Positions 6,623 to 54,036 of a stretch of DNA of 64,000 bases are shown piece by piece. Both the position numbers and the translations under genes were made by a program. The stretch is from the NCBI GenBank assembly GCA_049968255.1, contig JBMFRB010000003.1, positions 256,998 to 320,997 on the forward strand, read 5' to 3'. Position 1 is the first letter of the stretch. Every line of letters begins with the position of its first letter. The DNA is from Candidatus Sumerlaeaceae bacterium. Its GTDB lineage: Bacteria > Sumerlaeota > Sumerlaeia > Sumerlaeales > Sumerlaeaceae. Under the pieces are notes generated by a model. It worked only from the letters and a program-made list of their open reading frames with translations. It ran no database searches and was not told the DNA's origin.

Positions 6623-6627
6623 GTCTC

Positions 6628-7623: not shown

Positions 7624-7975
7624 CGGCGAGCCTCGCAGACGTAGTTCTTGCGTATCTCGTACGTTCGTGTCGTCGCTGTGTAGACACTTTGAGGAGCCCT
7701 GTCTCAAATCTTGCTCGCGTGGCTCGGGCCATGGGGTGCAACCTAGGAGTTGAGAGCCACGATCGCCGCACTGCGGCAATGTTTATTGTTGACTACAAAA
7801 GAAGATCGTATTTTATCGGTACTATTTTCAAGTCTTCACAAGGTTTGCCTCTTTTTTCTCACCGATCCGGATGTCATGCGCGACGGATTTGGCTGAGAAA
7901 TCCTTTGTCAACGAGAGGATCAGTTTGGGAAATCCACGCCACAACTCATGGAAAATGAATAATCTTAGCCAATTT

Positions 7976-11166: not shown

Positions 11167-12651
11167 TCAGCGAAGTGCCGAACCGTCAACGTGCACGCGC
11201 GCAGCTTGGCGCCTGGCGCGCTCGAGAATCGCTCGAACTTTGGCATCGGCCCCCCGCACCGCCGCCTCAGGCGCTGCTTGCCCCAGCAGCGCCCGCTGGA
11301 TTTCCTGCTGGAGCACTTTGTCGATGCGTTCGCCTCCGAGCACAAGCGGAGACATGATGCCTGCAGGAAATAGCGCGAAAACAGGGCCAAGCATGGGATG
11401 GTCGGCCCAGGGGTTGCCGGTGCTCTTGCGCGAAGGATAGACGTTTTCAAAGCGCAGAACACGCTGGCCCTCGCCGCTAACGAGGAATTTGACAAATTCC
11501 GCGCACAGGCGTCGCTTTTCTGGATCTCGCTGGCGGAACACCACATACGTGCCAAGCCCCGACGAACCCAGCACCGGGGTGGTCCCTGGATCATGCGGAG
11601 GGGCTGCGATGGCGTAGCGAATAGGATTCTCGAGTTCATCAAGACGGCCGGCTGCACGTTTGCGCTCGTTCGTACGTTCGATAGCGGCGTTAGCGACTTC
11701 CACGGCCGTAATGCACCACGCTCCCTGAAATGTCACGGCACAGGTGCGGCTGTCGCGCCAAATGTTCCAACTTTGTTCCTGAGTCATAGCGCCGATCTTC
11801 GGCTGCGCCACTTTGTACTCGCGCTCGAGCGCAATGAGTCGCCGCACTCCCTCCAAAAATGCTGGCGAACCTACGCCCGAGACCACATCGCCCTGCGCGT
11901 TGCGTTCGAGGATGCGGCCACCTGCGTTGAAGATGATCGAATAGGCTTCGTACTCCATCGGGCCAAGATTTGTCACAACGCCATAGTACTGCTTGCAGCG
12001 CCCAGCCAGCTCAGCCGGCGCCAGACCATCGTGTATTTGCCCATCGGGTGTCTCATATTTGGTAAGGGCGCGCATCTTCTGGACAAATTCTGCCCACGTC
12101 CAGCGGCCGTTGCGTGGAGGTTCCACACCAAATTTTTCGAAAAGGTCCAGATTGAGCAACGCCACGTAGCACGCCTTGTACCAGGGGACGGCGTAGATGT
12201 GACCCCCGTAAGAGACGGCTTCGATGTACTCTTCGTGAAAATCCGCAAGCTCATCCTGCAGAAACGCTTCCAGAGGTTCTAGCACTTCCTGCGCGATGAA
12301 ACGGCTCGACACATTCACTTGCCCGCACACGTCGGGAGGTCGGCCGCTATTGACCGCGAGTATGACTTTCTGCTGGCCGTCTTGCCATGGCAATTTCGTG
12401 TAGCGCACCCGCACGCCCTGGTGCGAAGCCTCGAATCGCTGGATTGCTTGCCTCAGGTATTCGTTTGTCTTCGGCAGGTGAGGGAAGTCCCAGAACTCTA
12501 TAAGATAAGTGCCAGGGGCTTCCGCGCGGCCGCGTGCCTCCGGACCGCTGCAGCTGCTCAACACTAAACAAGCGACCGCCGCGACGAATGCTAGCCAAAG
12601 AGCTAAGGTTGCTGTGCAGCGTGAACCACCGGGGGTGGCGCCAAAACTCAT
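11167..12651 (-). CDS. Sugar ABC transporter substrate-binding lipoprotein
   Basis: Lipobox LVLSSC, SGRPPDV, GHIYAVPWY, NLDLFEKFGVEPP..WTWAEF; GAAGG RBS before ATG 12651. Confidence 0.87.
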   Translation of the reverse strand: MSFGATPGGSRCTATLALWLAFVAAVACLVLSSCSGPEARGRAEAPGTYLIEFWDFPHLPKTNEYLRQAIQRFEASHQGVRVRYTKLPWQDGQQKVILAVNSGRPPDVCGQVNVSSRFIAQEVLEPLEAFLQDELADFHEEYIEAVSYGGHIYAVPWYKACYVALLNLDLFEKFGVEPPRNGRWTWAEFVQKMRALTKYETPDGQIHDGLAPAELAGRCKQYYGVVTNLGPMEYEAYSIIFNAGGRILERNAQGDVVSGVGSPAFLEGVRRLIALEREYKVAQPKIGAMTQEQSWNIWRDSRTCAVTFQGAWCITAVEVANAAIERTNERKRAAGRLDELENPIRYAIAAPPHDPGTTPVLGSSGLGTYVVFRQRDPEKRRLCAEFVKFLVSGEGQRVLRFENVYPSRKSTGNPWADHPMLGPVFALFPAGIMSPLVLGGERIDKVLQQEIQRALLGQAAPEAAVRGADAKVRAILERARRQAARVHVDGSALR

Positions 12652-12773
12652 CCTTCGACCCTCTCGCCGCGGATTCGCCGCGAAAAGTTTTGCCTTGTCA
12701 AAAGAAAGCGCATCAGAATTGCCTTGCTGAGACAAGAGTCGCGGCAAAGGAATTCTCGCCGGGATGAGATGGC

Positions 12774-15440
12774 ATGAGTGGGCGCGGGCGATCCTGGGTC
12801 TTGGGCGAAGGAACGTGGCTGGTGCTGATTGCACTTGCGTACGTCCTTGTCGGCGTGTTGCTTTTTGGCCGCGCGCTGGGGCCATGGTCGTACCTGCTCT
12901 ATGGACGGGACACCGTCTCTCACGATTATATCATGCTGCTCTACGGGTGGCAGGAGACTCTGGGGCGGCACTTCCTTCCGCTGTGGTGTCCGTACCTTTT
13001 TGGGGGGGTCCCTCTCATTGGCTCTTTTGCCTTTTGCCCCTTTTATCCCTCGCAATGGCTGTACGCCATTGTGCCGTTCAACACAGCCTTCACGCTGCAA
13101 TATCTACTGGCCATCGCTCTCGGGGGAGTCACCAGTGCGCTGTGGGCACGGCATCTTGGGTGCTCCCGCCTGGGGGCGATGTGTGCTGGCCTACTGTTCT
13201 GCGTTTCAGGCCATTTTCTCACGCTTGTGCACGCCGGTCACCTGCAGAAAGTCATGGCCATTGCGTGGGCGCCGCTCGCCCTCGCCATGGCGCCGAAGCT
13301 TTGCGAGCGTGGTAGCCGTGCGTTGCGTGCCATGCTGGTCGTCGCCGTGGCGTTGGCGATGCAGCTTTTTGCAAGCCACACGCAGATTGCTTATGCGACT
13401 GCGTCGGCAGTGCTTGGTTTCGCCATAGCTTCTTTCCGTGGCCAGCGCTGGAGCCATCCCCTGGTGCTAGTGCGGAATTTTGCCGGGGCTATAGCGCTCA
13501 GTGCGGTCCTCAGTGCTGCGCAATTTTTCCCCGGCATGGAAACCGCGGCACTCTCTAATCGTGCCGACGGAGTGAGCTTTGCCGAGGCGGTCGAGACAAG
13601 CTACCCACCCCGTGAATTGTGGGAATTCGTGATACCTCGTGTTTTCGGCGACAGCGTGTCGGGTAGTCCGGTCCCTTATTTCGGCTCTTGGGGTGAGCGC
13701 ATTGTTAGTGATTTTATCGGTGTTTCAGCCGTGCTTTTGGCGCTCATTGGTCTCTTTGCCGGAAAGGGGCCCTCGCGGAGGATGCTGGCGATCACTACCG
13801 TCATCTCTCTGCTTATTGGACTCGGCCGATACACGCCGATCTATCGCTTTCTTTACGAACATCTGCCTGGCTTCTCGCGATTTCGCTCTCCCGGCACCTT
13901 TATGTTTCTTGCCTCGGTGTGCCTTGTGCAGCTTGCCGCGCTCGGTCTTGAAGTCCTCTGGCGGGGGATTGATGGCGATCCGCTTCGCTTTCCACGCACC
14001 AGAGTGCTCGTTGTCGTGGGGTTTGGGGGCCTGCTCGGCCTGCTCATGACGGCGGCCCCAGCTGCGATTGGCCCCTTGCTTGGCATCGGGACGGCGGAGC
14101 AATGGGCAAAGTTTGGGTCGGTTCTCGGGCAAAACATTCGCGCAGCCGGCATGCAGTTTGTGGCCTCGGCCGCGCTCATTGCGGTCACGGCGATGGCGGT
14201 GCTGGCCTGGGAAAGCTCTCCAGGGGGCCAGCGCTCCCAAGGACGATATCTTTTTTCCAAATTAGCATTTATTGCATTAGTTCTGATGACTGTCCTTGTT
14301 CCCGCGCTTGCAAACCGGTACTTTATTCGATTTGCGCCGTTCGACGACTATCTCTTGTATTTGAGCTCCGAGAAGTCATGTGCGTCGAAATGGACTGACG
14401 AGCCAGCGCCGAGGGATATCGTGTGGCTTGCCAAATTATGCTTCGCGCCTCGGGCGCGCTCTTGGACTTCAGTGCCGAAGCGCATCATGGGGCCCAATCT
14501 TCTCGACAATCGGCCGCTTTTGTCGCGGACGGGGTCCCCCGCGGGTTATCACCCGGTGTTTCTCAAACGTTACGCCGATCTTGTTCAATCGCTTGGCTGG
14601 TATCATCCTCAATTGCTGCGCCAGTACGCCGTACATGAAGTGGCCGCGGATGCGTCGCTGTCGCTCCCGGCCTCAGAATGGGAACAAACGGGATCGAGGG
14701 ATCGCTCTCGGCAATGTTGGCAGCAACGTTTTCCCAAGTATCTGAGCGTCTGTCGACGCTTGGTCGTGTGTGCGACCTCTCAAGAAGTGATGAAAGTTCT
14801 GGCAGCCGATCCACATGCGACCCCGCCACAACGTCCTTTTGTCACTTTGCGATGGGCATCGGAGTTCACCACGAACGGCGTTGACAGTCCACTCGACCAA
14901 TGCGAATGGGCGGTGGTCGAGGCCTCCCGTCTTTGGCGGGCCGGACTACCTGTCTTTTGGATGGCCAACAGTGAGGATTGGTTCATTTGGTTTCCACGAG
15001 CCTATGCCAGGCTGATGAGGGACCAAGTGGAGCTCCGTGCTAGTTGTCCCCAGGGAATTTCACGTGTGCGTCCGTTGGTGACGTTCGACGATTACAGGCC
15101 TGGAGCGATGAAGGTGACACTTTTCTATCACGACCAAGGCATAATTCTTCTTGCCGAGAACTATTGTCCCGGCTGGAAAGTCGCTTCCAAAGGCAGAAAA
15201 CAAGTTACGGTGCTGCCAGTGAATCACGCGCAGCTGGGTATTCTCTTCCGACCTTCGCCTGGTGATTCTCCTCTGTGTTTATTGGAACTCACCTACGCCC
15301 CCTTCAGTTGGCGCCTAGGGCTATTTCTCTCTTTGGTCGCCTGGGCTACGCTTTTCGCTTACGTCCTGGCGCACTTCATGCAAAAAACACGATTTCATGA
15401 TGCATGCAAACACTGGACAATGCCCGCTCTTCACTTTTAG
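12774..15440 (+). CDS. YfhO-like polytopic membrane protein (GT-C fold glycosyltransferase)
   Basis: PLWCPYLFGGVP, FYPS, PGFSRFRSP, C-terminal ENYCPGWKV...NHAQLG...YAPFSWRLGL. Confidence 0.82.
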   Translation: MSGRGRSWVLGEGTWLVLIALAYVLVGVLLFGRALGPWSYLLYGRDTVSHDYIMLLYGWQETLGRHFLPLWCPYLFGGVPLIGSFAFCPFYPSQWLYAIVPFNTAFTLQYLLAIALGGVTSALWARHLGCSRLGAMCAGLLFCVSGHFLTLVHAGHLQKVMAIAWAPLALAMAPKLCERGSRALRAMLVVAVALAMQLFASHTQIAYATASAVLGFAIASFRGQRWSHPLVLVRNFAGAIALSAVLSAAQFFPGMETAALSNRADGVSFAEAVETSYPPRELWEFVIPRVFGDSVSGSPVPYFGSWGERIVSDFIGVSAVLLALIGLFAGKGPSRRMLAITTVISLLIGLGRYTPIYRFLYEHLPGFSRFRSPGTFMFLASVCLVQLAALGLEVLWRGIDGDPLRFPRTRVLVVVGFGGLLGLLMTAAPAAIGPLLGIGTAEQWAKFGSVLGQNIRAAGMQFVASAALIAVTAMAVLAWESSPGGQRSQGRYLFSKLAFIALVLMTVLVPALANRYFIRFAPFDDYLLYLSSEKSCASKWTDEPAPRDIVWLAKLCFAPRARSWTSVPKRIMGPNLLDNRPLLSRTGSPAGYHPVFLKRYADLVQSLGWYHPQLLRQYAVHEVAADASLSLPASEWEQTGSRDRSRQCWQQRFPKYLSVCRRLVVCATSQEVMKVLAADPHATPPQRPFVTLRWASEFTTNGVDSPLDQCEWAVVEASRLWRAGLPVFWMANSEDWFIWFPRAYARLMRDQVELRASCPQGISRVRPLVTFDDYRPGAMKVTLFYHDQGIILLAENYCPGWKVASKGRKQVTVLPVNHAQLGILFRPSPGDSPLCLLELTYAPFSWRLGLFLSLVAWATLFAYVLAHFMQKTRFHDACKHWTMPALHF

Positions 15441-26917: not shown

Positions 26918-29608
26918 ATGAGCACAACGCCCCCATCGCCCGGTGGCACCCATTATCAACTCGATCTTGATCGCGTGCGTCGTCAGGAATTTCTCGCAAG
27001 CGCCAACGAGCAACTTCGCCAAGCGCGCGAACAGCATATCAAAGCGTGCCTTCGACGGGGCGGCATGCAAGCTTCCCAAGAGCTCGCGGCTGCCATGGAC
27101 GCCTTGCTCGTTCGCATTGCGGAGTGGGTCGTGCGAGAGGCAGGGCTCGGTCGCGCGGACTACGGGCGCGTGGCCATTGTGGCGCAGGGTGGCTACGGGC
27201 GAGGTCAGCTCAATCTTTTCTCGGATGTGGATTTGCTCCTGCTGCTTCCGGATAAGCCGACGCCCACAGAGCAAGCCTTCGCGACCAGTTTTCTTTACAT
27301 GCTTTGGGATTTGCGAGGCATTGAGCTGGGCCACGCAGCCAAACGAGTGGAGGAAGCGCTGAGTGCGGCGGGGAGCGATCTCGATTCCACGACCACGCTC
27401 ATTCACACGCGACTTGTCTTTGGCAATGCAGAGCTGCTCGAATCTCTACAGAAGGAGCTTGCTGCACGCCTGCAGGGGGCAAAGCGTCGCTGGTTTGTCG
27501 AGGCAGTCCTCGAATCTGCGCGCGCGCGTCACGAAAAATACGGCCGTTCCATCTACCTGCTCGAGCCGAATATCAAAGAAGGCGAAGGCGGACTGCGCGA
27601 CACTCATGCCCTGCTCTGGCTCAGCTACGCGCTGCTTGGCAGCGCAGAGTCGCACATGCTCGTTGGCCACGGCGTGCTAGAACCGAACGAACTTCTTGCC
27701 ATGGCCGACGCAGTGGATTTCCTCCTCTGCGTGCGGAGCCTTCTCCATGAGCTCGAAGGCCGCAAAGCTGACACTCTGACGCAAGGACGTCAGCCCGTCA
27801 TCGCGAAAAAACTGCATTATCGCTCCGACCCGGTGCTTCTCGCGGAGGAGCGCATGATGAAGGATTACTACCTACGCGCCCGGTCAATAGACCGCTACTC
27901 GCGCAAAGCCACACGCCTGCTCACCACCAAAGCACGAGGACTCTTCGCAACAGTATTCGACTCGATGCGCGAACGCTCGCTCGATGAACATTATGCGGCG
28001 CGGGGCGACATGCTTTATCTCAAAAAGCCCGACATTGCGTTTTTCCTCGAAGATCCACCACGCATCATGGAATGCTTCTGGCTAGCCGCGAGCACGGGGC
28101 TCACACTGAGCGATGAATTGAAGGACATCATGGTCCAGTCACGCACAGCCACGGCCACAGATCAATTCCGCGGCTCGCCGCGCTGCCGCGATGCGTTCAT
28201 GCGCATTCTCGCGCTCAAAAACGGCGCCGCCAGTGCGCTTCACCAGATGCACGAAACGCACGTGCTCATGGATTACATCCCGGAATTTCAGAAACTCTTC
28301 TGCCTCGTGCGTGTGGATTACTATCATCGCTATACGGTGGACGAGCACTCAATCAAAGCAATCGAAGTAGCGGAAGAACTCATCTCTGGCCGGGCCAAGG
28401 TGCCCCCCGATCTTTACGACGCTGCGCGAGCTATCCAGAGGTGGGACCTCCTCAACCTTGCGCTGCTGCTCCACGACATCGGAAAGGGCGAAGGGCATGG
28501 CCATGTTCTTCGCGGTGCTGGCATGTCCAAGCAGATTACACAACGCATGGGGCTGGCTCCTGAGGATCAGGAAGTCGTGCGCCTGCTTGTGGGACAGCAT
28601 TTGAAAATGGTGCATATTTCACAACGCCGTGATCTCAGCGACCCCGCCGTCATTCAAGACATGGCCAATGCCGTGGGCGACGAACAGCTCCTGGCAATGC
28701 TCTATGTGCTCTCGTATTGCGACACAAGCGCAGTAGGGCCAGAGGTATGGACGGATTGGAAAGCCGCGCTTTTGTCCGAACTCTATCGGCGCACTTGTCA
28801 GCTGCTGGCAGGCCACGAGCTCAAGCTTGAGCTCGACCCCGAAGAGCACGCTCAGCTCGTCGAGCAATTGGCCGCCACGCTGGGCGAACATGCAACACCC
28901 AGTGAGGTGCGCACTTTTCTCGACAACATGCCACCAAAGTATCTCAACACTGTACCGGTGGAGAAAATGGCGCAGCACTTTCTCATGCGGCGCGAGCTCG
29001 ATGATCACAATCGGGTCGTGTGGACAACGCACGATCCCGTGGGCATGAATTACACCGAGCTCACTGTGGTTGCGCGTGACGTTCCCGGTTTGCTCAGTGT
29101 CTTGTGCGGCGCGCTCAGCTCGCGAAAAATTAACATCCTTAGCGTGCAGGTTTACTCAACAAAGGATGGCTATGCCATTGACACCTTCCAAGTGACCGAT
29201 TTGCGCGGACATCGTTTGCCTCAGGGAATGCGGCTTGATCGCCTGCGACACGAAGTAAACCGTGTGCTGTGCGGTCAGGCCAAAGCGTCCGAACTCTTCC
29301 AGCATGTCGTGCCGAGGGTGCGTCCGAGATCCGAGGTGGAGGTCGTCAAGCCGCCGCAGATTCTCATCGATAACGACACCTCGCCAGCTTACACGATTGT
29401 TGAGGTGAAAACTTATGATCGCCCCGGGCTGCTTTACGATATCACCTCGATTTGCGCCGCTATGGGCTTCAATATCCATCTCGCCCTCATCACGACCGAA
29501 GCGTATCGCGTGGTGGATGTCTTTTATCTCACTGATACCGACAATAATAAGCTTACAGAACAGCGCATATTGAAGAAGCTCACGGACGCCCTCAAGCAGG
29601 TGGTATAA
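26918..29608 (+). CDS. glnD: [Protein-PII] uridylyltransferase / uridylyl-removing enzyme
   Basis: AQGGYGRG..SDVDL, EPNIKEGEGGLRD, HRYTVDEH, LLHDIGKG (HD), two ACT domains (DVPGLL, DRPGLLY). Confidence 0.96.
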   Translation: MSTTPPSPGGTHYQLDLDRVRRQEFLASANEQLRQAREQHIKACLRRGGMQASQELAAAMDALLVRIAEWVVREAGLGRADYGRVAIVAQGGYGRGQLNLFSDVDLLLLLPDKPTPTEQAFATSFLYMLWDLRGIELGHAAKRVEEALSAAGSDLDSTTTLIHTRLVFGNAELLESLQKELAARLQGAKRRWFVEAVLESARARHEKYGRSIYLLEPNIKEGEGGLRDTHALLWLSYALLGSAESHMLVGHGVLEPNELLAMADAVDFLLCVRSLLHELEGRKADTLTQGRQPVIAKKLHYRSDPVLLAEERMMKDYYLRARSIDRYSRKATRLLTTKARGLFATVFDSMRERSLDEHYAARGDMLYLKKPDIAFFLEDPPRIMECFWLAASTGLTLSDELKDIMVQSRTATATDQFRGSPRCRDAFMRILALKNGAASALHQMHETHVLMDYIPEFQKLFCLVRVDYYHRYTVDEHSIKAIEVAEELISGRAKVPPDLYDAARAIQRWDLLNLALLLHDIGKGEGHGHVLRGAGMSKQITQRMGLAPEDQEVVRLLVGQHLKMVHISQRRDLSDPAVIQDMANAVGDEQLLAMLYVLSYCDTSAVGPEVWTDWKAALLSELYRRTCQLLAGHELKLELDPEEHAQLVEQLAATLGEHATPSEVRTFLDNMPPKYLNTVPVEKMAQHFLMRRELDDHNRVVWTTHDPVGMNYTELTVVARDVPGLLSVLCGALSSRKINILSVQVYSTKDGYAIDTFQVTDLRGHRLPQGMRLDRLRHEVNRVLCGQAKASELFQHVVPRVRPRSEVEVVKPPQILIDNDTSPAYTIVEVKTYDRPGLLYDITSICAAMGFNIHLALITTEAYRVVDVFYLTDTDNNKLTEQRILKKLTDALKQVV

Positions 29609-29609
29609 T

Positions 29610-45308: not shown

Positions 45309-47186
45309 TTACGGACCTGGTGCATAGCGTGCCACCACTCGCCCAACGAAAAACGGGCCAAGCGACTGAATATATTCTGACGTTTGCCGGCTCTTGCGCA
45401 TTTCCTGAACGAGGCGCGAAAGCCTGTGCAAGTTCGTTCCGACTAGCCCCACCACGAATTCGTTGTCGTTGCGGTCAAGTCCATAACAAGCTAATCTGAT
45501 ATCATGCGCATAGTCACATTCGCCGTAGACCCGCCCCATCATCGCGTGCTCCATGAGGATCCGTCTTTGCTCTTCTTTGCTCAGGCGTTCGAAATCTGGC
45601 TTACGCCTCAGCGGGTACCACACGGCCCAGTTCCACTCCGTATTCAACAAATAGCGGTACGGGCGCTCAAAAAGCGTGTCCATCAAGTCCGGCTCGCGTC
45701 CGCTCGAATAAGTCCGGCCATACATCGTGCGCTCGATGTCCAGTTCACATTCACACATCGGTGCCGTCTCTGATACCGCTCGCATGAAATCCATGAGAGC
45801 TTCCGGCGCCTCGTTCCACGCCGCGATAGCAAAGGCTCGTGGAAACACAGCGTCGAGATAGAGCACCCAGGGCTGCTTGGGATAGAGTTCGGCTCCCAGT
45901 TTCTCGAGCGCATGGCGGATCTCAGCGACATCGGCCATCCCTTCAAAGGCCAGAATATGCAAGTAGAGACGCCTATCCACGGCCTGAACGACGCCGCCCA
46001 CCGGGCTGCCGAGCTCGCGCACATCACGCGGATCATCGGGGCAATACAGGTCGCGGTTCGGCTCAATACCCCAGCGCTTTGCTGTTTCCCAGTGATAGTC
46101 CCGCATCGGCCATTGATCTGGCTGCGGCGGCCCAAGATATTGCGGCGAGGCGCCCTTGAGCGCCATGCAGCCAGTATTGTCGCCTAACTGCGCGATTTCA
46201 GACACCTCATCGGGCGCCAGGGGCTGGAGGTTCAGCACACCCGCCAATTCCTCTAGGAGCGCCTCGATTGGTTTTGCGTCCGGCATGGCTTCCTGAATCA
46301 ACGTTGGCACAACACTTTCCACCGCCGGCTGTTCCAAGGTCCAGCTGCACGCCAACTGCAGCAGCGTCATGCCGCGCCCATCGGCAATATCGCGCATGCG
46401 CTGGAGTTTCGGTTGCGCAGCTTCAATCCAACCGGCCGGGCGAAACGCACGGTGGTCCGAGCGCGCCAGCCGATCTCCAGGCCGCAGACCGTCCAGAAAC
46501 AATCCTCCGTGGTCCACGACACGGGCCAAGACCTTAATCTGATGCTCTAGAGCTGCGGGCAGCACGAGTCGGCTGGGCCACGGTTCCAAAGGATTGAGAA
46601 TCAGCATGGCCCAATCAATCAGCGAGTGGTAACGGTCGAAGGCGTAAAGAATGTCGAGTGTGAAACCATTGGCCGGGCCAGGGGCAATGCCAAGCAGGCG
46701 CGTCAGCCCGCTTTCCATGAGTTCGCCCATTCCCTCCCATACGTCTTCGCTAGTGTAGCCAATTGAGTCGGGATTGTGTAGGAGGAGGACGTCGAAGTTG
46801 TCCACGCCCAGCCGCTCAAGGGATTTCTCCGCCGCCATGCGCAAATAGGCTCCATACTCATCTGGGCCGCGCAGCGTCGGATCGGTGAAGCGCGGAAAGC
46901 CTTTTTCGCCCGCGCGCTTGCCAAAGTAAAAATCGTGCCCTATCGCGCCGATCAGAGCATATTCGTCGCGTGGCACGCCCTCGAGCGCTTTGCCGAGCAG
47001 GCGGTCCGCCTCGCCACAACCGTAAACGTCTGCGGTGACAAAAGTACGAACCCCGAGTTCGTACGCACGCTGGAAAAGCGCGATGAAGCGCTGCTGCCCG
47101 ATATCCTGACCAAAATGCATAAATCGGCCGCCGCTCCACGTTCCAAGCGCAAGCGGCATGGGATCACGTCCGAGCTGTTCTGTCAT
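45309..47186 (-). CDS. Aldo/keto reductase fused to a chlorite dismutase/ChdC-like heme domain
   Basis: N-terminal LGTW, TADVYG, SLERLG.D.FD.LLLHNPD; C-terminal WYPLRR...EEQRRILMEH..MG, YGLD..DNEFVVGL, MRK, GPFFVG; single uninterrupted ORF. Confidence 0.82.
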   Translation of the reverse strand: MTEQLGRDPMPLALGTWSGGRFMHFGQDIGQQRFIALFQRAYELGVRTFVTADVYGCGEADRLLGKALEGVPRDEYALIGAIGHDFYFGKRAGEKGFPRFTDPTLRGPDEYGAYLRMAAEKSLERLGVDNFDVLLLHNPDSIGYTSEDVWEGMGELMESGLTRLLGIAPGPANGFTLDILYAFDRYHSLIDWAMLILNPLEPWPSRLVLPAALEHQIKVLARVVDHGGLFLDGLRPGDRLARSDHRAFRPAGWIEAAQPKLQRMRDIADGRGMTLLQLACSWTLEQPAVESVVPTLIQEAMPDAKPIEALLEELAGVLNLQPLAPDEVSEIAQLGDNTGCMALKGASPQYLGPPQPDQWPMRDYHWETAKRWGIEPNRDLYCPDDPRDVRELGSPVGGVVQAVDRRLYLHILAFEGMADVAEIRHALEKLGAELYPKQPWVLYLDAVFPRAFAIAAWNEAPEALMDFMRAVSETAPMCECELDIERTMYGRTYSSGREPDLMDTLFERPYRYLLNTEWNWAVWYPLRRKPDFERLSKEEQRRILMEHAMMGRVYGECDYAHDIRLACYGLDRNDNEFVVGLVGTNLHRLSRLVQEMRKSRQTSEYIQSLGPFFVGRVVARYAPGP

Positions 47187-47220: not shown

Positions 47221-48252
47221 TCAATAACTCATCTTGTCCAGTTTCACTTTTCCGCGGAAAACCCAATAAATCACAGAGGTATAGCCGAGCACAAAAGGCA
47301 TGCCGATGGCGGCGATGATCGCCATGATGGCCAACGTCTTTTGCGACGAGGCTGCCGTGTAGGCCGTCAGACTGTATTTGGGATCAATCGAGCTAATAAT
47401 CAAATTCGGGAAAAGGGCGATGCCAAAAAGGAAAATCAAGCCTGCCATCGTGCAGCCAGAGCTGATTAGCGCGCGAACTGGATAACCAAGATACACAGCA
47501 CGCGGGATGTTGGCAATGGCGAGCACCGTGAGAATGACCATAGCCCAAACCCACGGGAAGTAGCGGAAATTGTATGTGGCGTTGGGCACTGTAGCCAGTG
47601 TCACGATCGTCGTCAGGATGTAAAAGAACAAAAATGTGCCGAACGCTCGCCAAATCCAGCCGCGAATGCGCTCCTGCAGTTCCCCTTCCGTTTTCATGTA
47701 CAGGTAAATTGCACCGTGCAGGGCAAACATCGAGACGTTGAACACGCCGACGAGAATGGGATACAGGGTCAATAAATCAAAAAAGGTCCCTTTATAATCT
47801 CCATCTGCTCCGATGGGAAGGCCTTGCATCATGTTTCCGACAGCCACACCAAAAAGGAAAGACGACAGAAAGCTGGAGAGGAAAAACGCGACGTCCCACA
47901 TTTGCCGCCACCACGGCCACGGTTGCTTGCTGCGAAATTCAAGCGCAACGGCCCGAAAGATGAGGGCGCATAGCAACAACATGAAGGCAAGATAGAACCC
48001 CGAGAAGGCTGTGGCATAGGCTTTCGGAAATGCCGCGAACAATGCCCCTCCCGCTGTCACAAGCCAAACCTCGTTGCCATCCCACACGGGACCAATCGAG
48101 TTCATCAAAATTCGTCGCTCGACATCCTTTTTGACAAAGAGGTGGAGCGTTCCCACCCCAAGATCAAAACCATCAAGGACGGCGTAGCCAGTGAGCAGCA
48201 CGCCAATAAGGAAATACCAAAGCAGGTTCAGGTCGAGCCATTCGGGTGTCAT
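47221..48252 (-). CDS. cydB: Cytochrome bd quinol oxidase subunit II
   Basis: YAVLDGFDLGVG, IGPVWDGNEVWL, FAAFP, FRAVALEFR, YWVFRGKV; GGAGG RBS. Confidence 0.97.
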   Translation of the reverse strand: MTPEWLDLNLLWYFLIGVLLTGYAVLDGFDLGVGTLHLFVKKDVERRILMNSIGPVWDGNEVWLVTAGGALFAAFPKAYATAFSGFYLAFMLLLCALIFRAVALEFRSKQPWPWWRQMWDVAFFLSSFLSSFLFGVAVGNMMQGLPIGADGDYKGTFFDLLTLYPILVGVFNVSMFALHGAIYLYMKTEGELQERIRGWIWRAFGTFLFFYILTTIVTLATVPNATYNFRYFPWVWAMVILTVLAIANIPRAVYLGYPVRALISSGCTMAGLIFLFGIALFPNLIISSIDPKYSLTAYTAASSQKTLAIMAIIAAIGMPFVLGYTSVIYWVFRGKVKLDKMSY

Positions 48253-48256
48253 GGTC

Positions 48257-49672
48257 TCATGCCTCCTCCAAAGATGCGGGTTTTTTGATCTCTGCCGCCA
48301 CGTCCAGCAACGAACTTTTCGCCGGACCCGTGTGTATCTCCGCCGTTTCGTCAGGCCCGTGTTGGATTTTGTCATTCATCACATAGAGCCACACCAACAG
48401 CAGCCACGCGTAAATGAAAGCAAAGAGGCCTATGGATATGGCGATCTCCGTTGCACTCACTGCCTTCGACACACTATCGCTCGTGCGCAGAAGACCGTAA
48501 ACCACCCAAGGTTGGCGGCCGACCTCAGCAGCTACCCAGCCAAGCTGATTCGCCGCGTAAGCCGCCAGAATAGCGAAGACGAAAATCCAAAGCAACCATC
48601 GCTGTTCGAACAGCTTTCCACGCCAACGTAAGAACGACGCAAGCAGTGTGATGCCGATAAAGAACATGCCAAGTGCCACCATCGCGTGATACGAATGAAA
48701 TGTGAGCGCAACGGGCGGCCGATCCTCCGGCTTGACCTTGTCAAGACCGTCCACGGGCTTGTTCCAGTCAAAATGCACGAGAAAGCTGAGCATTCCCGGA
48801 ATAGCTATGCCATATTTCACCCGCTCCTCCTGCGGATCGGGATGCCCAAAAAGATAAAGCGGAGCGCCGCCCTGGGGAGTCTTGAATAACCCTTCAAAGG
48901 CAGCTAGCTTTGCGGGCTGAGTGAACGCCACCTGCCGCGCACTCGCGTGACCCGACACAAGTTGCATCAGCGAGGCGATCGTGGCCACCACCAGCGCTAC
49001 GGTGAAAGAACGCTTAGCGCCATCCAGATGCTTGCCGTGGAGGATGTACCACGCACACACGCTCATCACAAAGAACGAACCGAGAATGAAAGCAGCAAGA
49101 ACAGTGTGCGTGAGGCGATTCATGCTCGATGGGTTGAACACAACCGCCCAGAAGTCCGTGATCTCCGCTCGTTGGCTGCCCATGTGTTCCACAATGTGAA
49201 AACCGGCGGGCGTCTGTTGCCAAGAATTGGCGACAATGATCCACACAGCCGAGAAAATCGAACCTAGGCAGACCATCAGCGTCGAAAAGAAGTGCATGCG
49301 CGGCGAAACGCGATCCCAACCGAACACGAGGACAGCTAAGAAGCCCGACTCGAGGAAAAACGCAAAAATGCCCTCCGCGGCGAGAGCCGAACCGAAAACG
49401 TCGCCCACGAAACGCGAGTAAGTTGCCCAGTTCGTCCCAAACTGAAACTCCATCACGATTCCCGACGCCACACCCATCGCGAAGGTCACCGCGAAAAGGC
49501 GCGTCCAAAAACGAGCCATGTTTTCGTAAACCTTGAGGCCCGTCTTGAGATACATGCCTTCGATGATCACCATAATGAGACCTAAGCCGATTGACAACGG
49601 CACAAAAAGGTAGTGGAAGGCCACTGTCAGTGCAAACTGGAGCCTGCTGAGCGTCACGGCGTCAAAGCTCAT
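48257..49672 (-). CDS. cydA: Cytochrome bd quinol oxidase subunit I
   Basis: [53 protein letters not shown]; GAGGAG RBS. Confidence 0.97.
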
Positions 49673-49686
49673 AGCCATTCTCCTCA

Positions 49687-49704
49687 TTGTGAGTTATTTC
49701 ACGA
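49687..49704. promoter_or_regulatory. Rex-like (or CRP/FNR-family) operator upstream of cydA
   Basis: TTGTGAG-TTAT-TTCACGA matches 12/14 of TTGTGAA-N4-TTCACAA and abuts the cydA RBS. Confidence 0.65.
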
Positions 49705-50026
49705 ACTAGACAATAAGGCGTCCATTTCAAGTACAAAATCGGTACCGCAAACTTCTGCCCACCCACTTCCCAGTAGACATTATAGAGATAATTGTGGGCA
49801 AAAGCCCCTTCGAGACATCTGCCGTGGAGTCTCTCAAGAAAACAAATTCTGGAGCTGGCACGCCGCTCCTGCCGAGCGTTGTAACTTAGTCACATCGCCT
49901 ATCCAGCGGGCACAAAAAATCACCCACGAATCCTACCCAAATCGTGTGTCGACCACACAAAAAACAATCAGGCAGAAAGGTAGCCCAGCGAAAGCTGAAT
50001 AGGCCAGATGAGGACGAGTATGGTAC

Positions 50027-50035
50027 TGTTATAAT
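50027..50035 (+). promoter_or_regulatory. Extended -10 sigma70 promoter
   Basis: Perfect TGnTATAAT (TGTTATAAT) 22 bp upstream of ATG 50058. Confidence 0.6.
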
Positions 50036-50057
50036 GCGCAAGCGAGCAACAGAACGC

Positions 50058-50465
50058 ATGCGGCTAAGACAATTCCTCTGCCTTTGCATGCTCTGGGCTC
50101 TGGTGCAGCTGGCGGCCGGATGGTATTCCACAGCTGGCCCGCAGGCCTCCTGTTCGACATTGCCGTGCGCCTTTGCCTGTTGTGCAACATGTGATGGTTG
50201 TTGCACCAGCGACGACCCAAAAGGTTGTGACATCTCCGAAACGCAAGACTGCCGCTGTAGCTGCTCGCTTCCCGTCAGCAGCGACCAGTCTGCTCTCCCA
50301 TTTCAGCGCAAGTATTCCTTCCAGACGCGGGTGGAAAGGGCACTAGTCGCCGTCCTTGACGATGTGGTGCCGATTGTGGCCCGCGGAGCAATGCGCGACG
50401 CCCACTTTGGCCACAACTGGAGTTCCCTCCCACGGTATCTTTTGAATAGGGTTCTACGGAATTGA
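50058..50465 (+). CDS. Cys-rich DUF2946/CruR-like putative leader protein (135 aa)
   Basis: Basic then hydrophobic N-terminus, 11-Cys cluster (CC, CC, CxCxC), C-terminal LPRYLLNRVLRN. Confidence 0.65.
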   Translation: MRLRQFLCLCMLWALVQLAAGWYSTAGPQASCSTLPCAFACCATCDGCCTSDDPKGCDISETQDCRCSCSLPVSSDQSALPFQRKYSFQTRVERALVAVLDDVVPIVARGAMRDAHFGHNWSSLPRYLLNRVLRN

Positions 50466-50606
50466 TCTCGTGGCAGCGTTGTGACCACCGCGCGTTGCGA
50501 GCACACGCTGCCTGTGATGAGGATGGGCCACCCCCTCTGGGTGCCCTGTGCGCTCGAGAGGTCCGCAATACGATTACGAACCCTCAGATTTCAAGGAGTA
50601 ACACCC

Positions 50607-50813
50607 ATGTTGAAGAACCTCGCGATGGCGTTGACTGCCATCACCCTCATGGCCGCACCAGTGGTCTCGTTTGCCCAGACTTGTGGCGGGTCGAAAGATT
50701 CCATGCCCAAGTGCGAGTGCAAAGATGGAAAATGCGGCTGCAAGGACGGCAACTGCAGTTGTGGGAAAGACTGCAAATGCGAAAAGTGCGGTCATTCCAG
50801 CGACAAGAAGTAA
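50607..50813 (+). CDS. Exported metallothionein-like protein (68 aa)
   Basis: AAGGAG RBS; signal peptide ending VSFA; 45-aa mature part has 10 Cys with four CxC, Lys/Gly/Asp-rich, no Phe/Tyr/Trp. Confidence 0.8.
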   Translation: MLKNLAMALTAITLMAAPVVSFAQTCGGSKDSMPKCECKDGKCGCKDGNCSCGKDCKCEKCGHSSDKK

Positions 50814-50859
50814 CCTTAGCTGACGTGACTTGAACGTCACGCTTGCAGCATGACATCTT

Positions 50860-50915
50860 GGGAAGCTGCTCGGTAACGGCATACAGCCGAGACTTGCAGC
50901 TTCCCTTCTTTTTTT
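50860..50915 (+). terminator. Probable Rho-independent terminator
   Basis: GGGAAGCTGC / GCAGCTTCCC stem with inner CTCGG/CCGAG, then TTCTTTTTTT. Confidence 0.6.
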
Positions 50916-51441
50916 CTCACTTCTCGATGTGGTAGAGATCTGCGTGATCGCAAAGGTGTTTTTGGTTGAGAACGACCATCCCGCGAACATGAGTTTGCCC
51001 TTCGTCCGAGCCGCTCTACCCACATCCCTAATACCTCACCCTGCAGGGTTCAGCTCAGAGAACTACGGTGGTGACGTCAAAAACTTGCACAAAACGATTG
51101 GAAAACGCGAAGCGGACTCTCGTTCTCGTGCGATGCAGCGTCCGGCTGTTCCATCATCCATTGGGGGGCGAGTTGCGCTGTCAAGCCGCGCGATACTCAT
51201 AGACCGATGCGTCATTTTGTCATTAACATGTTCATGTGAGATCTTCCCAAATTGTTAGATGACGTCCTGACCATGACCGCATGGCAGGGATGAGCGTAGC
51301 CCTATAGACGTGCAGTGCGACATTCAGATTCTGAGGTCATCCGCAAAAGCAAAGTAGCACGCATCTTTGCGGTGAGCAGCGGTCACGCCAGGTTTCCATG
51401 CACCGAAAATGCAGGCTGTGCCAACGATAGCCGACACTTCG

Positions 51442-54036
51442 TCACTCTGGTGGCTGTGGCTCCGGTCCTTTTTTCCCCCCGCGAATCCAAGCCTGGCGTG
51501 CTAGCAAGTATTGGCGTCGCTTCTCGAGCTCAGTTAGATGTTTTGGCCCGCTCGACGCAGCTACGCCAGCGGGACTCCCCGCCGCGCCATCCGGTTTGTC
51601 ATTAGCCGCGCCCCCCTCTCCACCCACCGGTTTTGCATCTGGCGGCGGAGCCAGGAGCTTTTCGACAAGTACGCGCGCCGCCCCATCGAGCGCACCCGTG
51701 GCGAGCAACTGCTCAAGTCTTTCTTTGAGCGGCGAGCGGCGCGGACCAAGACGCCGCAGAACGTCGACGACCTTTTGCCGCATGACTGGAGTCCCTAACT
51801 GAAGCGCATGAAGCAGCTCAGCGTGGAGGCGTTCTAAGACGGCCGGTGTGACTGGGGCTCTGGCAAAATCCATGAGCGCCGTTGCTGCCGCCGCTGCAAC
51901 AATTGCGTCCTTGTCTATCACGTGTTCGACGATCTTCGGCAACGCTGCGACAGTTTTCTTTTTGGCCAAGCCAGCCATTGCAGCCACACGTCGCGCGCGC
52001 CGTTTCGTCGCCAGCAAAAACCTCGCCTCCAGATCGTGCAGCCATTGCGTTTCCTCGTGCGAGAGCACAGTCGCCGTGGAAATCTCAGCCTGGCCTTCCT
52101 GCGTTTCTGCCGCAGCGCCCGGGAAGACGCCGAACATCCCTTCACCCCCACGTTTCTGCCCCACCTTCATGTAGGCCTGCATGAGGACGTCTGCCGTTTC
52201 TTTTCCAGGGCGAGGAAGTCGGCCACTGCGCACCTCCTCGAAAAGTTCCGCCAGCAGCTCATCAGCTTCCTCGCTAGGGATTTTGCTCACGGCGTAAACA
52301 AGTGCGCTCAGCACTTTGTCGCGCGTGATCTCAGAGCGTTCCTCAGTTCCCGGTTCGAGGATCGTCTCTCGCTGGTAGGGTGTTTTGGGTTTGTCATCGT
52401 GCAGAAACGTATTGGTAATGAGCTGGCGTAGGACGGGTAGCGTGGCGGGATCGGCCAGCTTTGCATAAAGCTCCGCCAGAGCGAGGTAGGCACCGGAAAA
52501 TGTTTTTGCGTGATGCAAAGCCACGCTGTTGATCGTGGCGAGAGCGTGAGGCGCAACACGTTCCAACAGCTCAATGAGCGGCTGGCGGAAGCCTAGAGGC
52601 GCCGTTCTGCCTTGACGCGCCAATTCGGGACGGTCCACGTGCCAAAGCGCTTGTGTGGCAATGGTGGCTGCCCACGTCAATAGCTCGGGATCTAACTTGT
52701 CGAGCGGTCCTTGCAAGAAAGCCAGCGCTGTGCGCATCGCCAACTCGTGATCGCCGGGTGGTAACATTTTCACCACGCGCTTCATAAGCTGCGATCGCTG
52801 CGCACCGTCGAGCGTGCGTGCCGCGCGCCCCAAAGCGTGAAGCACCGCAATCGCATCGCGTCGCGGCGGCCCCGTGAGCACCTTCTCGCGCAAGCATGAC
52901 TGCAGCACCTTCAAGAGCACATCGATTGCTTCTTGTGTGCCGATGCTTCCCAGTGCCGCAAGCGCTTCAGCTCGCACGTCGAGCTGCGGCTCCTCGATCC
53001 ATTTTGCCAACCAGCGCACGCCGGCCGGGTTTCGGAAAAGGCCAATCGTCTCCACAATGGCGGCCGCGATTTTCTTGTTCCAGATGGCCTCAGTCACAAA
53101 GCGCACATAGCTCTCCCACACCGGAGATGCTGCACCAACCTGGGCGAACGTCTTTGTCGCGACAATGCGGGCGGTGCGCCCCAACGACGCGTAAAGCCGT
53201 TGCTCGACACCGGCCAGCGCGCTCGTTGTCGAGAGCTCCTTCGGCACGAATTCCACAAATAGCGCTGTTGCCTCATAATAGCGTTCCCAACGCGGAGAGG
53301 TCAGGCACACAGCAACGATGGCGCGAATGGCCCGCAAAAATCTCTCGAGCTCGTCTTCATTCGGCTCGTGAAGCGCCATGCGATCAGGGAGAAAACGCGC
53401 GAGCTCCACAACTGCTTGGGTGTGCTCGACGCGCATCGCACTGGCCGGCGCCGTCTCGCGTCGATAGGCAGCCGCCCCTGAGCGCTCGTACTCCTCCAGC
53501 ATCGCCACAGCTGCTTGGCCATCGAGCCCTAGTTCGGACGCCGAGCGAGCTAATTGCCGAACAAAACTGGCCGCGCGTTCCTTCTCTGCGACAAGCCCTC
53601 CAAGCAGATTGCCAATCTGCCGCGCGCGCTGCACGCGCTCATCGGGCGTGAATGCCGTGTCGATCAGACTTCGGGCGAGCGCAAATGCACGCTTGAGTTC
53701 ATTTGCCTTTACGGCGCCACGGAACTCGTCCGTCAGGCGCTCATGTGCGATGCGTGCAAGACGCTCCCGCCACTCGTGAAACAGGTCCAAGTCGTGGCGA
53801 AGCGGATCCAGGACAGTATCACCAGCTGGCCCCAGCGCTGGAACTATCTCCTCCTCGAATCGCACGGCCGGCCACACGCGCCACTGATCCCGGTAAAGCT
53901 TGGTCAGCTGCCCAGCGGCTTGCGCTTGATTCGACGCAGCGTGTGGCGAGCGCACAAGCAAGTCCTCGGCGATTGCAAGTGCTTGCGCAATGCGTCCCTC
54001 TTCGAGAGCAATCCAGAGATGTTCCAACGTCGCCAT
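51442..54036 (-). CDS. Large HEAT-repeat alpha-solenoid protein
   Basis: VRAEALAALGSIG.QEAIDVLL and IVAAAAATALMD repeats; 864 aa, no TM. Confidence 0.8.
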   Translation of the reverse strand: MATLEHLWIALEEGRIAQALAIAEDLLVRSPHAASNQAQAAGQLTKLYRDQWRVWPAVRFEEEIVPALGPAGDTVLDPLRHDLDLFHEWRERLARIAHERLTDEFRGAVKANELKRAFALARSLIDTAFTPDERVQRARQIGNLLGGLVAEKERAASFVRQLARSASELGLDGQAAVAMLEEYERSGAAAYRRETAPASAMRVEHTQAVVELARFLPDRMALHEPNEDELERFLRAIRAIVAVCLTSPRWERYYEATALFVEFVPKELSTTSALAGVEQRLYASLGRTARIVATKTFAQVGAASPVWESYVRFVTEAIWNKKIAAAIVETIGLFRNPAGVRWLAKWIEEPQLDVRAEALAALGSIGTQEAIDVLLKVLQSCLREKVLTGPPRRDAIAVLHALGRAARTLDGAQRSQLMKRVVKMLPPGDHELAMRTALAFLQGPLDKLDPELLTWAATIATQALWHVDRPELARQGRTAPLGFRQPLIELLERVAPHALATINSVALHHAKTFSGAYLALAELYAKLADPATLPVLRQLITNTFLHDDKPKTPYQRETILEPGTEERSEITRDKVLSALVYAVSKIPSEEADELLAELFEEVRSGRLPRPGKETADVLMQAYMKVGQKRGGEGMFGVFPGAAAETQEGQAEISTATVLSHEETQWLHDLEARFLLATKRRARRVAAMAGLAKKKTVAALPKIVEHVIDKDAIVAAAAATALMDFARAPVTPAVLERLHAELLHALQLGTPVMRQKVVDVLRRLGPRRSPLKERLEQLLATGALDGAARVLVEKLLAPPPDAKPVGGEGGAANDKPDGAAGSPAGVAASSGPKHLTELEKRRQYLLARQAWIRGGKKGPEPQPPE

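Follow-up and report, generated by a model that had tools for sequence, protein, structure and literature searches.

The 64,000-nucleotide (nt) stretch of contig JBMFRB010000003.1 from a Candidatus Sumerlaeaceae bacterium, hereafter called the window, carries on its plus strand a compact unit of less than 900 nt. This unit consists of a gene for a Cys-rich leader protein, a long spacer, a second gene (gene 2, or ORF68) for a metallothionein (MT)-like peptide, and an intrinsic terminator. Judged from its recurrence in an orthologous locus, L002, the leader/MT-like pair is a self-contained, conserved two-gene transcription unit, and the leader belongs to no known protein family. The last codons of the leader gene are complementary to the region around gene 2's Shine-Dalgarno (SD) sequence in both genomes, and the unit is read here, tentatively, as a cis-acting translational switch that is CutF-like but of independent origin. 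All positions are those of the 64,000-nt window, and "window" and "L002" denote the two DNA loci that are compared throughout. The features of the unit are as follows.

49996 to 50027, plus strand: upstream block TGAATAGG ... AGTATGGTACT, a conserved island in the otherwise diverged cydA-leader intergenic region (window/L002 alignment)
50027 to 50035, plus strand: TGTTATAAT, previously taken for an extended -10 element; the L002 counterpart reads ACTATTGAAAT
50034 to 50465, plus strand: leader gene, 143 amino acids (aa) from the conserved ATG at 50034, or 135 aa if translated from the ATG at 50058
50034 to 50120, plus strand: putative N-terminal export signal, made up of a charged n-region and, after it, the hydrophobic core FLCLCMLWALVQLAAG
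50151 to 50273, plus strand: Cys cluster, 11 Cys within residues 40 to 77, ending CRCSCSLP (residues 73 to 80)
50418 to 50465, plus strand: C-terminal peptide W-x3-P-x-YLL-N-RVLRN, with UGA directly after it
50439 to 50456, plus strand: 5' strand of a candidate helix, with the Leu-Leu-Asn codons (50439-50446) as the anti-SD and GGGUUCUA (50449-50456) as the second stem
50575 to 50598, plus strand: 3' strand of the candidate helix, UA.GAACCC (50575-50583) and UUC.AAGGAG (50590-50598), the latter including the SD AAGGAG (50593-50598)
50590 to 50702 (L002 2164 to 2276): excess synonymous conservation, from the SD to codon 32 of ORF68
50607 to 50813, plus strand: gene 2, 68 aa, with a predicted signal at residues 1 to 23 (50607-50675) and a hydrophobic N-terminus ending VSFA/Q
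50860 to 50916, plus strand: intrinsic terminator, a hairpin (50860-50905) GGGAAGCUGC ... GCAGCUUCCC followed by a U-run

Conservation of the two-gene unit

The two open reading frames (ORFs) lie between the divergent cydAB genes (47221-49687, minus strand) and a convergent gene for an 864-aa HEAT-repeat protein (51442-54036, minus strand), as assigned with Pfam. L002, which comes from a metagenome-assembled genome (MAG) labeled Candidatus Sumerlaeota bacterium, has the same order, with cydA (minus strand), a 139-aa ORF ending PPLYLLNRVLRN, a 144-nt spacer (141 nt in the window), a 71-aa ORF that begins MLKNLAMAFAAITLMAAPVASFAQTCGG and contains 15 Cys, a terminator, and the HEAT-repeat gene. 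The two-ORF unit that a preliminary description had proposed from the window sequence is real and recurs at the same place between cydA and the HEAT-repeat gene. The synteny check that the same description had called for found both ORFs kept open in L002, with only in-frame insertions or deletions (indels).

Synonymous sites are saturated between the two loci. CydA shows 92% protein identity, its proportion of synonymous differences (pS) is 0.76, and among degenerate codons for the same amino acid, 151 of 369 (0.41) are identical in cydA and 119 of 291 (0.41) in the HEAT-repeat gene. The leader has an identity of 39%, a proportion of nonsynonymous differences (pN) of 0.417 that is lower than its pS of 0.736, and a single indel, which is an in-frame gap of 12 nt. 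Its conservation is concentrated in the Cys columns and at the C-terminus. The last nine sense codons include five with synonymous changes and none with an amino acid change, which argues that the peptide YLLNRVLRN, and not merely its nucleotides, is selected; by this comparison, the C-terminal peptide of the leader is under protein-level selection. Gene 2 (68 versus 71 aa) has an identity of 83%, pN is again lower than pS, and the indels are in-frame. Antisense ORFs over gene 2 were rejected: the differences in ORF68 occur at sense third positions, which are antisense first positions, and the antisense ORF at 50574-51023 is therefore not what is selected.

At synonymous sites, the beginning of gene 2 is more strongly conserved than any of the reference stretches. 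Within the first 32 codons of ORF68, 19 of the 26 codons for the same amino acid are identical, with 9.8 expected (P ~0.00015), and the nucleotide identity of 0.896 exceeds the maximum of 0.865 among 745 stretches of 32 codons from cydA and the HEAT-repeat gene. This excess suggests a further RNA-level constraint around gene 2 initiation, for which RNA structure, the binding of a small RNA or a regulator, or codon constraints in the signal peptide are possible sources.

The strong ribosome-binding site (RBS) noted earlier for gene 2 is present as a perfect AAGGAG at 50593-50598, 8 nt before the ATG. It is unusual in its surroundings, as an SD core within the 20 nt upstream was found for only 5 of the 23 long ATG-initiated ORFs of the window; the lack of an SD before the leader is the usual situation in this genome, from which gene 2, with its perfect SD, departs. 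The predicted terminator, a hairpin with a T-run, was likewise confirmed. Its hairpin has a z score of -4.65, none of 200 shuffles folds as well, and its 10-nt inverted repeat is 100% complementary. L002 has a counterpart with a different stem sequence (z score, -3.83), and both are missed by a simple terminator scanner because the stem has an inner branch. A search of Rfam with 49600-51500 at an E value of ≤1 gave a single match, to ssnA on the strand opposite the terminator (minus strand), which was rejected as subthreshold (17.5 bits versus 37.3).

The leader protein

The leader was first described as the 135-aa ORF 50058-50465 with a signal-like N-terminus, 11 Cys after this hydrophobic segment, and the end PRYLLNRVLRN. 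These parts of the description stand, and the start has been moved: the leader is probably 143 aa long and starts at ATG 50034, because this codon aligns with the only in-frame ATG of the L002 ortholog, at L002 position 1617. The maximum Kyte-Doolittle hydropathy over 12 residues is 2.29, starting at residue 15. On inspection, the signal layout is the same in the window leader, in the L002 ortholog, and in a third, distant homolog (P0005), and the leader is predicted to be exported.

The three leader members share invariant Cys columns and the motif CRC.CS.P. The W, P, YLL, and RVLRN elements of the C-terminal peptide are also invariant in all three, with YLLxRVLRN directly before the stop codon. 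The distance from the last Cys of CRCxCSxP to YLL is 57, 57, and 58 residues, while the sequence of the linker between them is unconserved. The C-termini read SLPRYLLNRVLRN, APPLYLLNRVLRN, and APPLYLLHRVLRN, and none contains RAPP or PPP, in agreement with the absence of RAPP recorded in the preliminary description. A degenerate DNA motif for the C-terminus occurs once in the window, with 0.00 occurrences expected. An AlphaFold2 model of the leader contained only a helix at residues 2 to 28 and a short helix at residues 134 to 140, with a mean predicted local distance difference test (pLDDT) score of 45; built on an alignment of three sequences, it is weak evidence that the leader may be unfolded between the signal helix and the 134-140 helix.

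A search with hmmscan of Pfam-A and NCBIfam at an E value of ≤10 returned no family for the window leader (in 135-, 143-, and 173-aa forms), the L002 ortholog, or P0005, and a profile search of the PDB with the leader gave no match. The relationship to DUF2946, CzcI, and HYC_CC_PP proposed in the preliminary description thus found no support, in libraries that were not checked for models named CzcI or HYC_CC_PP. Because no Pfam or NCBIfam model matches, the leader is, on these searches, a protein of no known family and not a DUF2946-type member. What does hold is the resemblance to the CutF/CruR-type layout, here with a putative export signal, a Cys motif, fixed spacing, an invariant C-terminus, and a position as the first gene before a long spacer. 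Four rule-based filters, from work whose leader lists were seeded by jackhmmer from CutF, were put to the present leaders and gave a length of <150 aa in all three, a hydrophobic N-terminal signal in all three (by inspection, hydropathy, and the AlphaFold2 helix), PP in the last 15 residues in two of the three (the window leader being the exception), and a downstream same-strand gene at both DNA loci, at 141 and 144 nt.

Relatives were sought in word-index searches of 5.8 billion proteins, exhaustive HMMER searches of 1.84 billion representatives, and scans of 185,579 species genomes. In the word-index searches, the leader query (P0001) returned only the 99%-identical P0003, and the ORF68 query (P0002) returned only its own window-encoded form (P0004). 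P0003 is a JGI record from a 1.76-Mb contig and differs from the product of 50058-50465 by one residue (QLAPG versus QLAAG), which indicates that a near-identical strain exists. The exhaustive HMMER search with the leader gave three matches at an E value of ≤0.001, namely, P0003, P0005, and P0006. P0005 is a distant homolog of 145 aa that is known as a protein only (E value, 3.3e-5; 32% identity); it shares CRC[ST]CSLP and the P.YLL.RVLRN end with the window leader and ends YLLHRVLRN. P0006, a repetitive Cys-rich protein of 1557 aa matched in 15 stretches, was rejected as a compositional match. A profile built from P0001 and P0005 found only those two clusters among 204 candidates, Cys-motif patterns gave 155 matches across the species genomes and no relative, and tblastn against plasmids gave no match.

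A scan of the species genomes with the back-translated PxYLLxRVLRN-stop motif gave six loci, and L002 is the only real one among them. L004 and L006, from Comamonadaceae MAGs, were rejected because the motif lies out of frame inside a 678-aa carboxylase ORF, and L001, L003, and L005 are chance matches with frames of 6 to 21 codons (12 in L001 and 6 in L003), L005 reading YFFHRVFRN. One and the same 36-nt stretch, which can be read as PAYLLRRVLRN-stop, is present in three Comamonadaceae, at L001 2001-2036 (a Variovorax MAG) and in L004 and L006. The L001 flanks do not align with those of L004 and L006, and the stretch is probably due to chance or a short repeat. The open-access literature searched contained no description of the YLLxRVLRN motif, of the leader/MT-like pairing, or of such control of an exported MT-type peptide, in line with the earlier statement that no description of the pairing was known.

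Candidate pairing between the leader end and the gene 2 SD

The spacer hairpins listed in the preliminary description are no better than those of shuffled sequences (whole-spacer z score, -0.73, with an equally good fold in 40 of 200 shuffles). When the DNA of the two loci is aligned, only two islands stand out in a spacer that has otherwise diverged, the GAACCC box (50578-50583) and the SD block AAGGAGTAACA. These islands supply the 3' strand, GAACCC / UUCAAGGAG, of a candidate long-range helix whose 5' strand lies in the last codons of the leader. RNAalifold predicted three stems for 50425-50625 aligned with L002 1996-2199. In stem 1, the Leu-Leu-Asn codons (50439-50446) pair with UUC.AAGGAG (50590-50598; consensus, UUC/G.AAGGAG). 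Stem 2 joins GGGUUCUA (50449-50456) to UA.GAACCC (50575-50583), with GGGUUCU pairing with the GAACCC box, and stem 3 comprises four pairs, between 50457-60 and 50562-65.

All 16 pairs of helices 1 and 2 are kept in both genomes, with two compensatory changes and two GU/GC changes. The full structure has 20 of 20 standard pairs in both genomes, three with both sides changed and two with exchanges between G-U and G-C. When the partner strand was moved by 1 to 3 columns as a control, 33 to 61% of the positions were paired and no compensatory change was seen. Five of the six nucleotide differences in the last nine leader codons fall at positions paired in the 20-pair consensus, and all five keep the pairing; three of them are offset by changes in the other strand, one of these three being in the weak third stem. 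In a joint duplex scan of 146 aligned 36-column blocks of leader and spacer against the gene 2 initiation region, the seven best blocks all overlap the last codons of the leader, and a summed energy as good as the observed one arises in only 0.15% of 2000 column shuffles. In L002, helices 1 and 2 have a probability of ~1.0, and when the codons of the peptide are exchanged for synonymous ones, only 0.35% of 2000 recoded versions pair as well. In the minimum free energy (MFE) structure of the window, leader codons 50437-50452 pair with the gene 2 AUG region. The action in cis on the next gene that had been proposed earlier gains new evidence, in that the last leader codons are complementary to the gene 2 SD region in both genomes, with compensatory changes; the pairing itself is thermodynamically weak in the window.

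Two small hairpins near the start of gene 2 are also kept in both genomes. The hairpin at 50599-50612 (UAACA/UGUUG) encloses the ORF68 AUG, and that at 50624-50642 (GAUGGCG...UGCCAUC) spans codons 6 to 12, with a closing pair that is G-U in the window and A-U in L002.

The MT-like peptide encoded by gene 2

MTs are small proteins with at least ~20% Cys in CxC, CxxC, or CC spacing and no or few aromatic residues, and gene 2 fits this pattern. The mature part is 45 aa long, with 10 Cys in CxC/CxxC spacing, one His, and no aromatic residue, and that of L002 is 48 aa long, with 15 Cys, no His, and no aromatic residue. The 68-aa Cys-rich, exported-looking ORF of the preliminary description was thereby confirmed as a hydrophobic N-terminus with a Cys-rich 45-aa tail, and the peptide is predicted from its sequence to be exported and to bind metals. 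The Pfam model Metallothio_Euk matches the window peptide below its cutoff (E value, 0.002; 18.5 bits versus a cutoff of 22), no bacterial MT model of Pfam or NCBIfam matches gene 2, and the L002 ortholog is without any MT match. The nearest ESM Atlas clusters carry the automatic name "Metallothionein family protein" (scores, 0.87 and 0.86), which serves as a lead only. In addition, the signal of ORF68 (50607-50690) has a weak match to the N-terminal part of "His-rich protein BRANT," an NCBIfam model (E value, 0.012; 16.7 bits versus a cutoff of 44), which may hint at a signal type common to small exported metal-binding peptides.

Leader start, upstream region, and neighboring genes

The preliminary description placed an extended -10 promoter and a short leader without an SD in front of the 135-aa ORF. 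The sequence TGTTATAAT is indeed present, and TGNTATAAT occurs three times in the window, with 0.27 occurrences expected. The promoter and start assignment did not survive: a consensus promoter scan called no sigma-70-like site in 49600-51500 or at the L002 locus, and the reading as an extended -10 element with a short leader is doubtful because the TATAAT box overlaps the conserved ATG 50034 and is not conserved in L002. The blocks TGAATAGG and AGTATGGTACT precede the aligned leader ATG in both genomes, and AGTATGGTACT contains an 11-nt palindrome, AGTA-TGG-TACT, at 50017-50027. From its conservation, the 49996-50027 block may be a candidate promoter or operator, perhaps shared with the divergent cydAB genes. 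A -35 element TGAATA and a -10 element TATGGT can be proposed here, and with TATGGT nine bases before the ATG, the mRNA would be nearly leaderless. The other matches to TGNTATAAT are at 12925-12933 (minus strand), 40 nt upstream of the start of a solute-binding-protein gene (11167-12885), and at 29601-29609 (plus strand), where the sequence directly abuts ATG 29610 of a TPR gene; the latter hints at leaderless or misassigned starts.

Two blocks upstream of the cydA start, TCATTGTGAGTTAYTTCAC and ATTTCAAGNACAAAATCNGTAC (window 49688-49780; L002 ~1289-1360), are kept in both genomes and may represent the cydA 5' untranslated region or a regulatory element. Just downstream of cydB, a 625-aa ORF (45309-47186, minus strand) encodes a fusion of an aldo/keto reductase and a chlorite-dismutase-family domain, which is unusual and adjoins the genes of a heme-containing oxidase. 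At 3257-7779 (minus strand), the window also contains a heme-copper oxidase assembly cluster that comprises SCO1/SenC, an ABC-2 transporter pair, a UbiA-family prenyltransferase (CtaB-like), and COX15/CtaA, which indicates that the organism handles copper for respiration.

Proposed mechanism and alternative explanations

In the proposed mechanism, the SD and start region of gene 2 would be masked in the resting mRNA by the 3' end of the leader gene. A ribosome translating, and probably pausing on, the last leader codons would melt this pairing and so open gene 2 to translation. How long the ribosome dwells there would depend on the invariant C-terminal peptide, which would cause the nascent chain to pause or arrest at the stop codon or close to it. 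About 30 to 40 residues are held in the ribosomal tunnel, in addition to the span of SecY. With the ribosome at the stop codon, the Cys cluster would be ~66 residues back, by estimate just outside the translocon, and metal binding as opposed to disulfide formation at this cluster could lengthen or shorten the pause. The logic would be that shown for CutF in Rhodobacter, carried by an unrelated sequence. The sensing of metals, the pausing or arrest, the export of the leader, and the direction of regulation are all presumed in this scheme. Because the unit shares the architecture and the candidate SD-masking logic and carries none of the sequence marks of DUF2946, it is filed as CutF-like and not as a member of that family. 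A CutF-like, cis-acting translational switch of independent origin is, in our estimate, the best of the explanations considered, and a tentative one that is somewhat less likely than not. A more specific version is unlikely: in it, YLLxRVLRN-UGA would be a new proline-free stop-codon arrest peptide, independent of DUF2946, and the half-exported Cys cluster would report metal or redox state, melt an anti-SD helix that spans 141 nt, and switch on a Sec-exported MT.

Several observations weigh against the proposed switch. The two DNA loci are orthologous and syntenic and therefore amount to one evolutionary observation. In the window, helix 1 has pair probabilities of at most 0.08 and helix 2 one of 0.19, no structure containing the helix comes closer to the MFE than 5.7 kcal/mol, and the pairing of the real sequence is equaled by 13% of synonymous recodings. 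The pair counts are reached by 50 of 500 shuffles, a control that is underpowered with two sequences, and the third stem (50457-60/50562-65) was dropped because its probability is 0.0 in L002. With the footprint of a ribosome at the stop codon masked, the SD guanines are still predicted to be mostly paired in both genomes, with a nearby CCCU in the window and with helix 1 in L002, and thermodynamics alone therefore does not show unmasking. The leaders are without a RAPP or poly-Pro motif; PP is present 12 residues from the end in two of the three, and the window leader has a single Pro there. No metal-homeostasis gene is adjacent, the neighbors assigned with Pfam being cydAB and the HEAT-repeat gene, and SCO1, CtaA, and CtaB are 43 to 47 kb distant from the unit. 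Lastly, the codon-usage scores of the leader (-0.075) and ORF68 (-0.121) are below the range of 0.095 to 0.347 in 22 long training genes, which may be due to their unusual Cys-rich composition; in the frame test, the leader frame is clearly the best of three, and that of ORF68 is narrowly ahead of the second frame (-0.121 versus -0.137).

These codon-usage scores, together with word-index searches that return only the proteins themselves, are what would speak for one or both ORFs being chance open frames in an intergenic region and not genes. This explanation is barely credible, since both frames are open in L002 with only in-frame indels despite saturated synonymous sites, pN is lower than pS in both, a third leader homolog exists (P0005), and the differences in ORF68 are at sense third positions, so that the antisense ORF at 50574-51023 is not the selected one. 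It is quite unlikely that the two genes are real and have no regulatory link, the complementarity being a by-product of the Leu-Leu codons (CUN CUN resembles an anti-SD) and chance, gene 2 being constitutively translated from its strong SD, and the leader being a lineage-specific secreted hypothetical protein. The low helix probability in the window ensemble, in which the SD guanines are ~70% unpaired, the share of window recodings that pair as well (13%), the nonsignificant covariation shuffle with n = 2 (50 of 500), and the z score of the spacer fold (-0.73) are all as this explanation would have them. Set against these are the GAACCC box and the SD block, which are the only conserved islands of the spacer and are exactly the partners of the last leader codons, and the five of six last-codon differences that fall at paired positions and all keep the pairing, three of them via the other strand (one in the weak third stem). 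The 3' end of the leader also ranks first among 146 blocks as the joint partner, with 0.15% of column shuffles reaching its value, and only 0.35% of recodings pair as well in L002.

Other explanations accept the unit and dispute what it does. It could be an ordinary operon of two cofunctioning secreted Cys-rich proteins, such as a periplasmic metal-binding or chaperone pair, in which the pairing provides translational coupling for stoichiometry, the C-terminus is a protein-protein, sorting, or membrane motif, and no nascent-chain sensing occurs. A leader of 143 aa with 11 Cys at conserved positions is more than a sensor motif needs, both products look exported, coupling by long-distance RBS masking is known in phage MS2, and residues 134 to 140 are modeled as a short, amphipathic-looking helix. 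Yet beyond the Cys columns and the C-terminus, the leader is poorly conserved (39%, compared with 92% for cydA) and is modeled without a fold (pLDDT, 45), and the fixed gap of 57 to 58 residues over a diverged linker, with conservation running exactly to the stop codon, is a hallmark of arrest leaders and not of folded partners. We consider this explanation to be on the unlikely side. It is very unlikely that gene 2 encodes a disulfide-rich secreted peptide with a signaling, antimicrobial, or structural role and that the unit answers redox or envelope state and not metals. An exported Cys-rich peptide would meet an oxidizing compartment, the Pfam MT match is below its cutoff, and the L002 ortholog has none. 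Excerpts of the literature on bacterial MTs treat these proteins as cytosolic and describe the exported copper store Csp1 as a Tat-exported four-helix bundle and not an MT (PMC7558416), which also favors a disulfide-rich peptide. The composition of the mature peptide is, however, that of a classic MT, with 22% Cys in the window and 31% in L002, CxC/CxxC/CC spacing, richness in Lys, Asp, and Gly, and no aromatic residue. Moreover, the number of Cys varies (10 versus 15), which metal-thiolate clusters tolerate and which would be awkward for a fixed disulfide knot, and the nearest Atlas clusters (0.86 to 0.87) are named for MTs, as a lead only.

Comparison with known systems

In the coat-replicase system of phage MS2, a downstream RBS is masked by an upstream coding sequence and is opened by translating ribosomes. 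The candidate masking of the gene 2 RBS by the leader gene is of this kind, while the MS2 system is viral and has neither a nascent-peptide element nor export.

The closest parallel in architecture is CutF of the Rhodobacter capsulatus cutFOG operon. According to excerpts of the CutF reports, this exported leader with a Cys motif stalls in a copper-dependent manner at a C-terminal PPP and thereby melts a stem-loop covering the SD of cutO; it is Sec exported, and its sensing domain is outside the membrane while its C-terminus is still in the ribosome (PMC9973294; 10.1101/2025.02.05.636593). The leader described here resembles CutF, as excerpted, in its length of <150 aa, a putative Cys metal motif, a conserved C-terminus, its position as the first gene of the operon, and a next-gene SD that would be masked by mRNA pairing (PMC9973294). 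It shows no sequence relationship to CutF, with no Pfam or NCBIfam match for any of the three leaders. Compared with CutF as described in these excerpts, its C-terminal motif is YLLxRVLRN-stop instead of PPP, it has 11 Cys instead of one CxxxC, its candidate masking strand is part of its own final codons and would close a loop of 141 nt, in place of CutF's local stem-loop in the intergenic region, and its target is an exported-looking MT-like peptide instead of a multicopper oxidase.

CruR (bp2923) of Bordetella pertussis, a DUF2946 (PF11162) protein, is described in excerpts of its report as 145 aa long, with CXXC and RAPP motifs 45 residues apart (45 ± 1 to 2 in DUF2946), a C-terminal motif three residues from the end, and a 162-bp intergenic region downstream (PMC9426467). 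The leader is similar to CruR, by the same excerpts, in size, in its predicted export signal, in the conserved distance that separates a Cys motif from a motif near the C-terminus, and in opening an operon, with a long intergenic region after it (162 bp for CruR and 141 to 144 nt here). Like CXXC and RAPP in DUF2946 proteins, the Cys motif and YLL keep a conserved distance (PMC9426467). In the leader, CRCxCSxP and YLLxRVLRN take the place of these two motifs and are 57 to 58 residues apart, so that the spacing is analogous and not the same. Rho-dependent termination, cytoplasmic copper sensing without a need for the signal peptide, and a TonB-dependent transporter as the target are reported in these excerpts for CruR only (PMC9426467).

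Arrest motifs that act with a stop codon in the A site include NSP-stop, NAP-stop, and DGMK-stop, and in the excerpted account, some export-monitoring arrest peptides stall in this way, with the arrest opening a downstream RBS (PMC10987492). Like them, the leader has a predicted localization signal at its N-terminus and a short conserved motif at its C-terminus, joined by a variable linker. As excerpted, the known peptides lie upstream of secA, secDF, or yidC, monitor the export machinery, and have other motifs and no Cys cluster (PMC10987492).

To date, the sensing of extracytoplasmic metals by nascent chains has been connected with a single family (DUF2946, with CutF and CruR) and with stalling at prolines. 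A leader that shares the architecture without sharing the sequence would point to more than one origin of this control logic. If the more specific version of the switch is true, transmembrane nascent-chain metal sensing would have been invented a second time, by convergence. It would also add a new candidate arrest motif for ribosome studies. As the leader is without the motifs used to find such leaders, surveys that filter for RAPP or PP would miss leaders of this kind.

The predicted target differs from known metal stores as well. The gene 2 product is small and Cys rich with CxC/CxxC spacing, like the bacterial MTs SmtA/BmtA and MymT. Excerpts of the literature treat SmtA-type MTs as cytosolic (PMC7558416), whereas gene 2 combines a predicted Sec-type signal with a 45-aa unstructured MT-like tail. 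Cys-based metal storage outside the cytoplasm does exist, as excerpted, in Csp1, which is a Tat-exported four-helix bundle unlike the gene 2 peptide (PMC7558416). For a Sec-exported MT-like peptide to buffer metals outside the cytoplasm would be uncommon.

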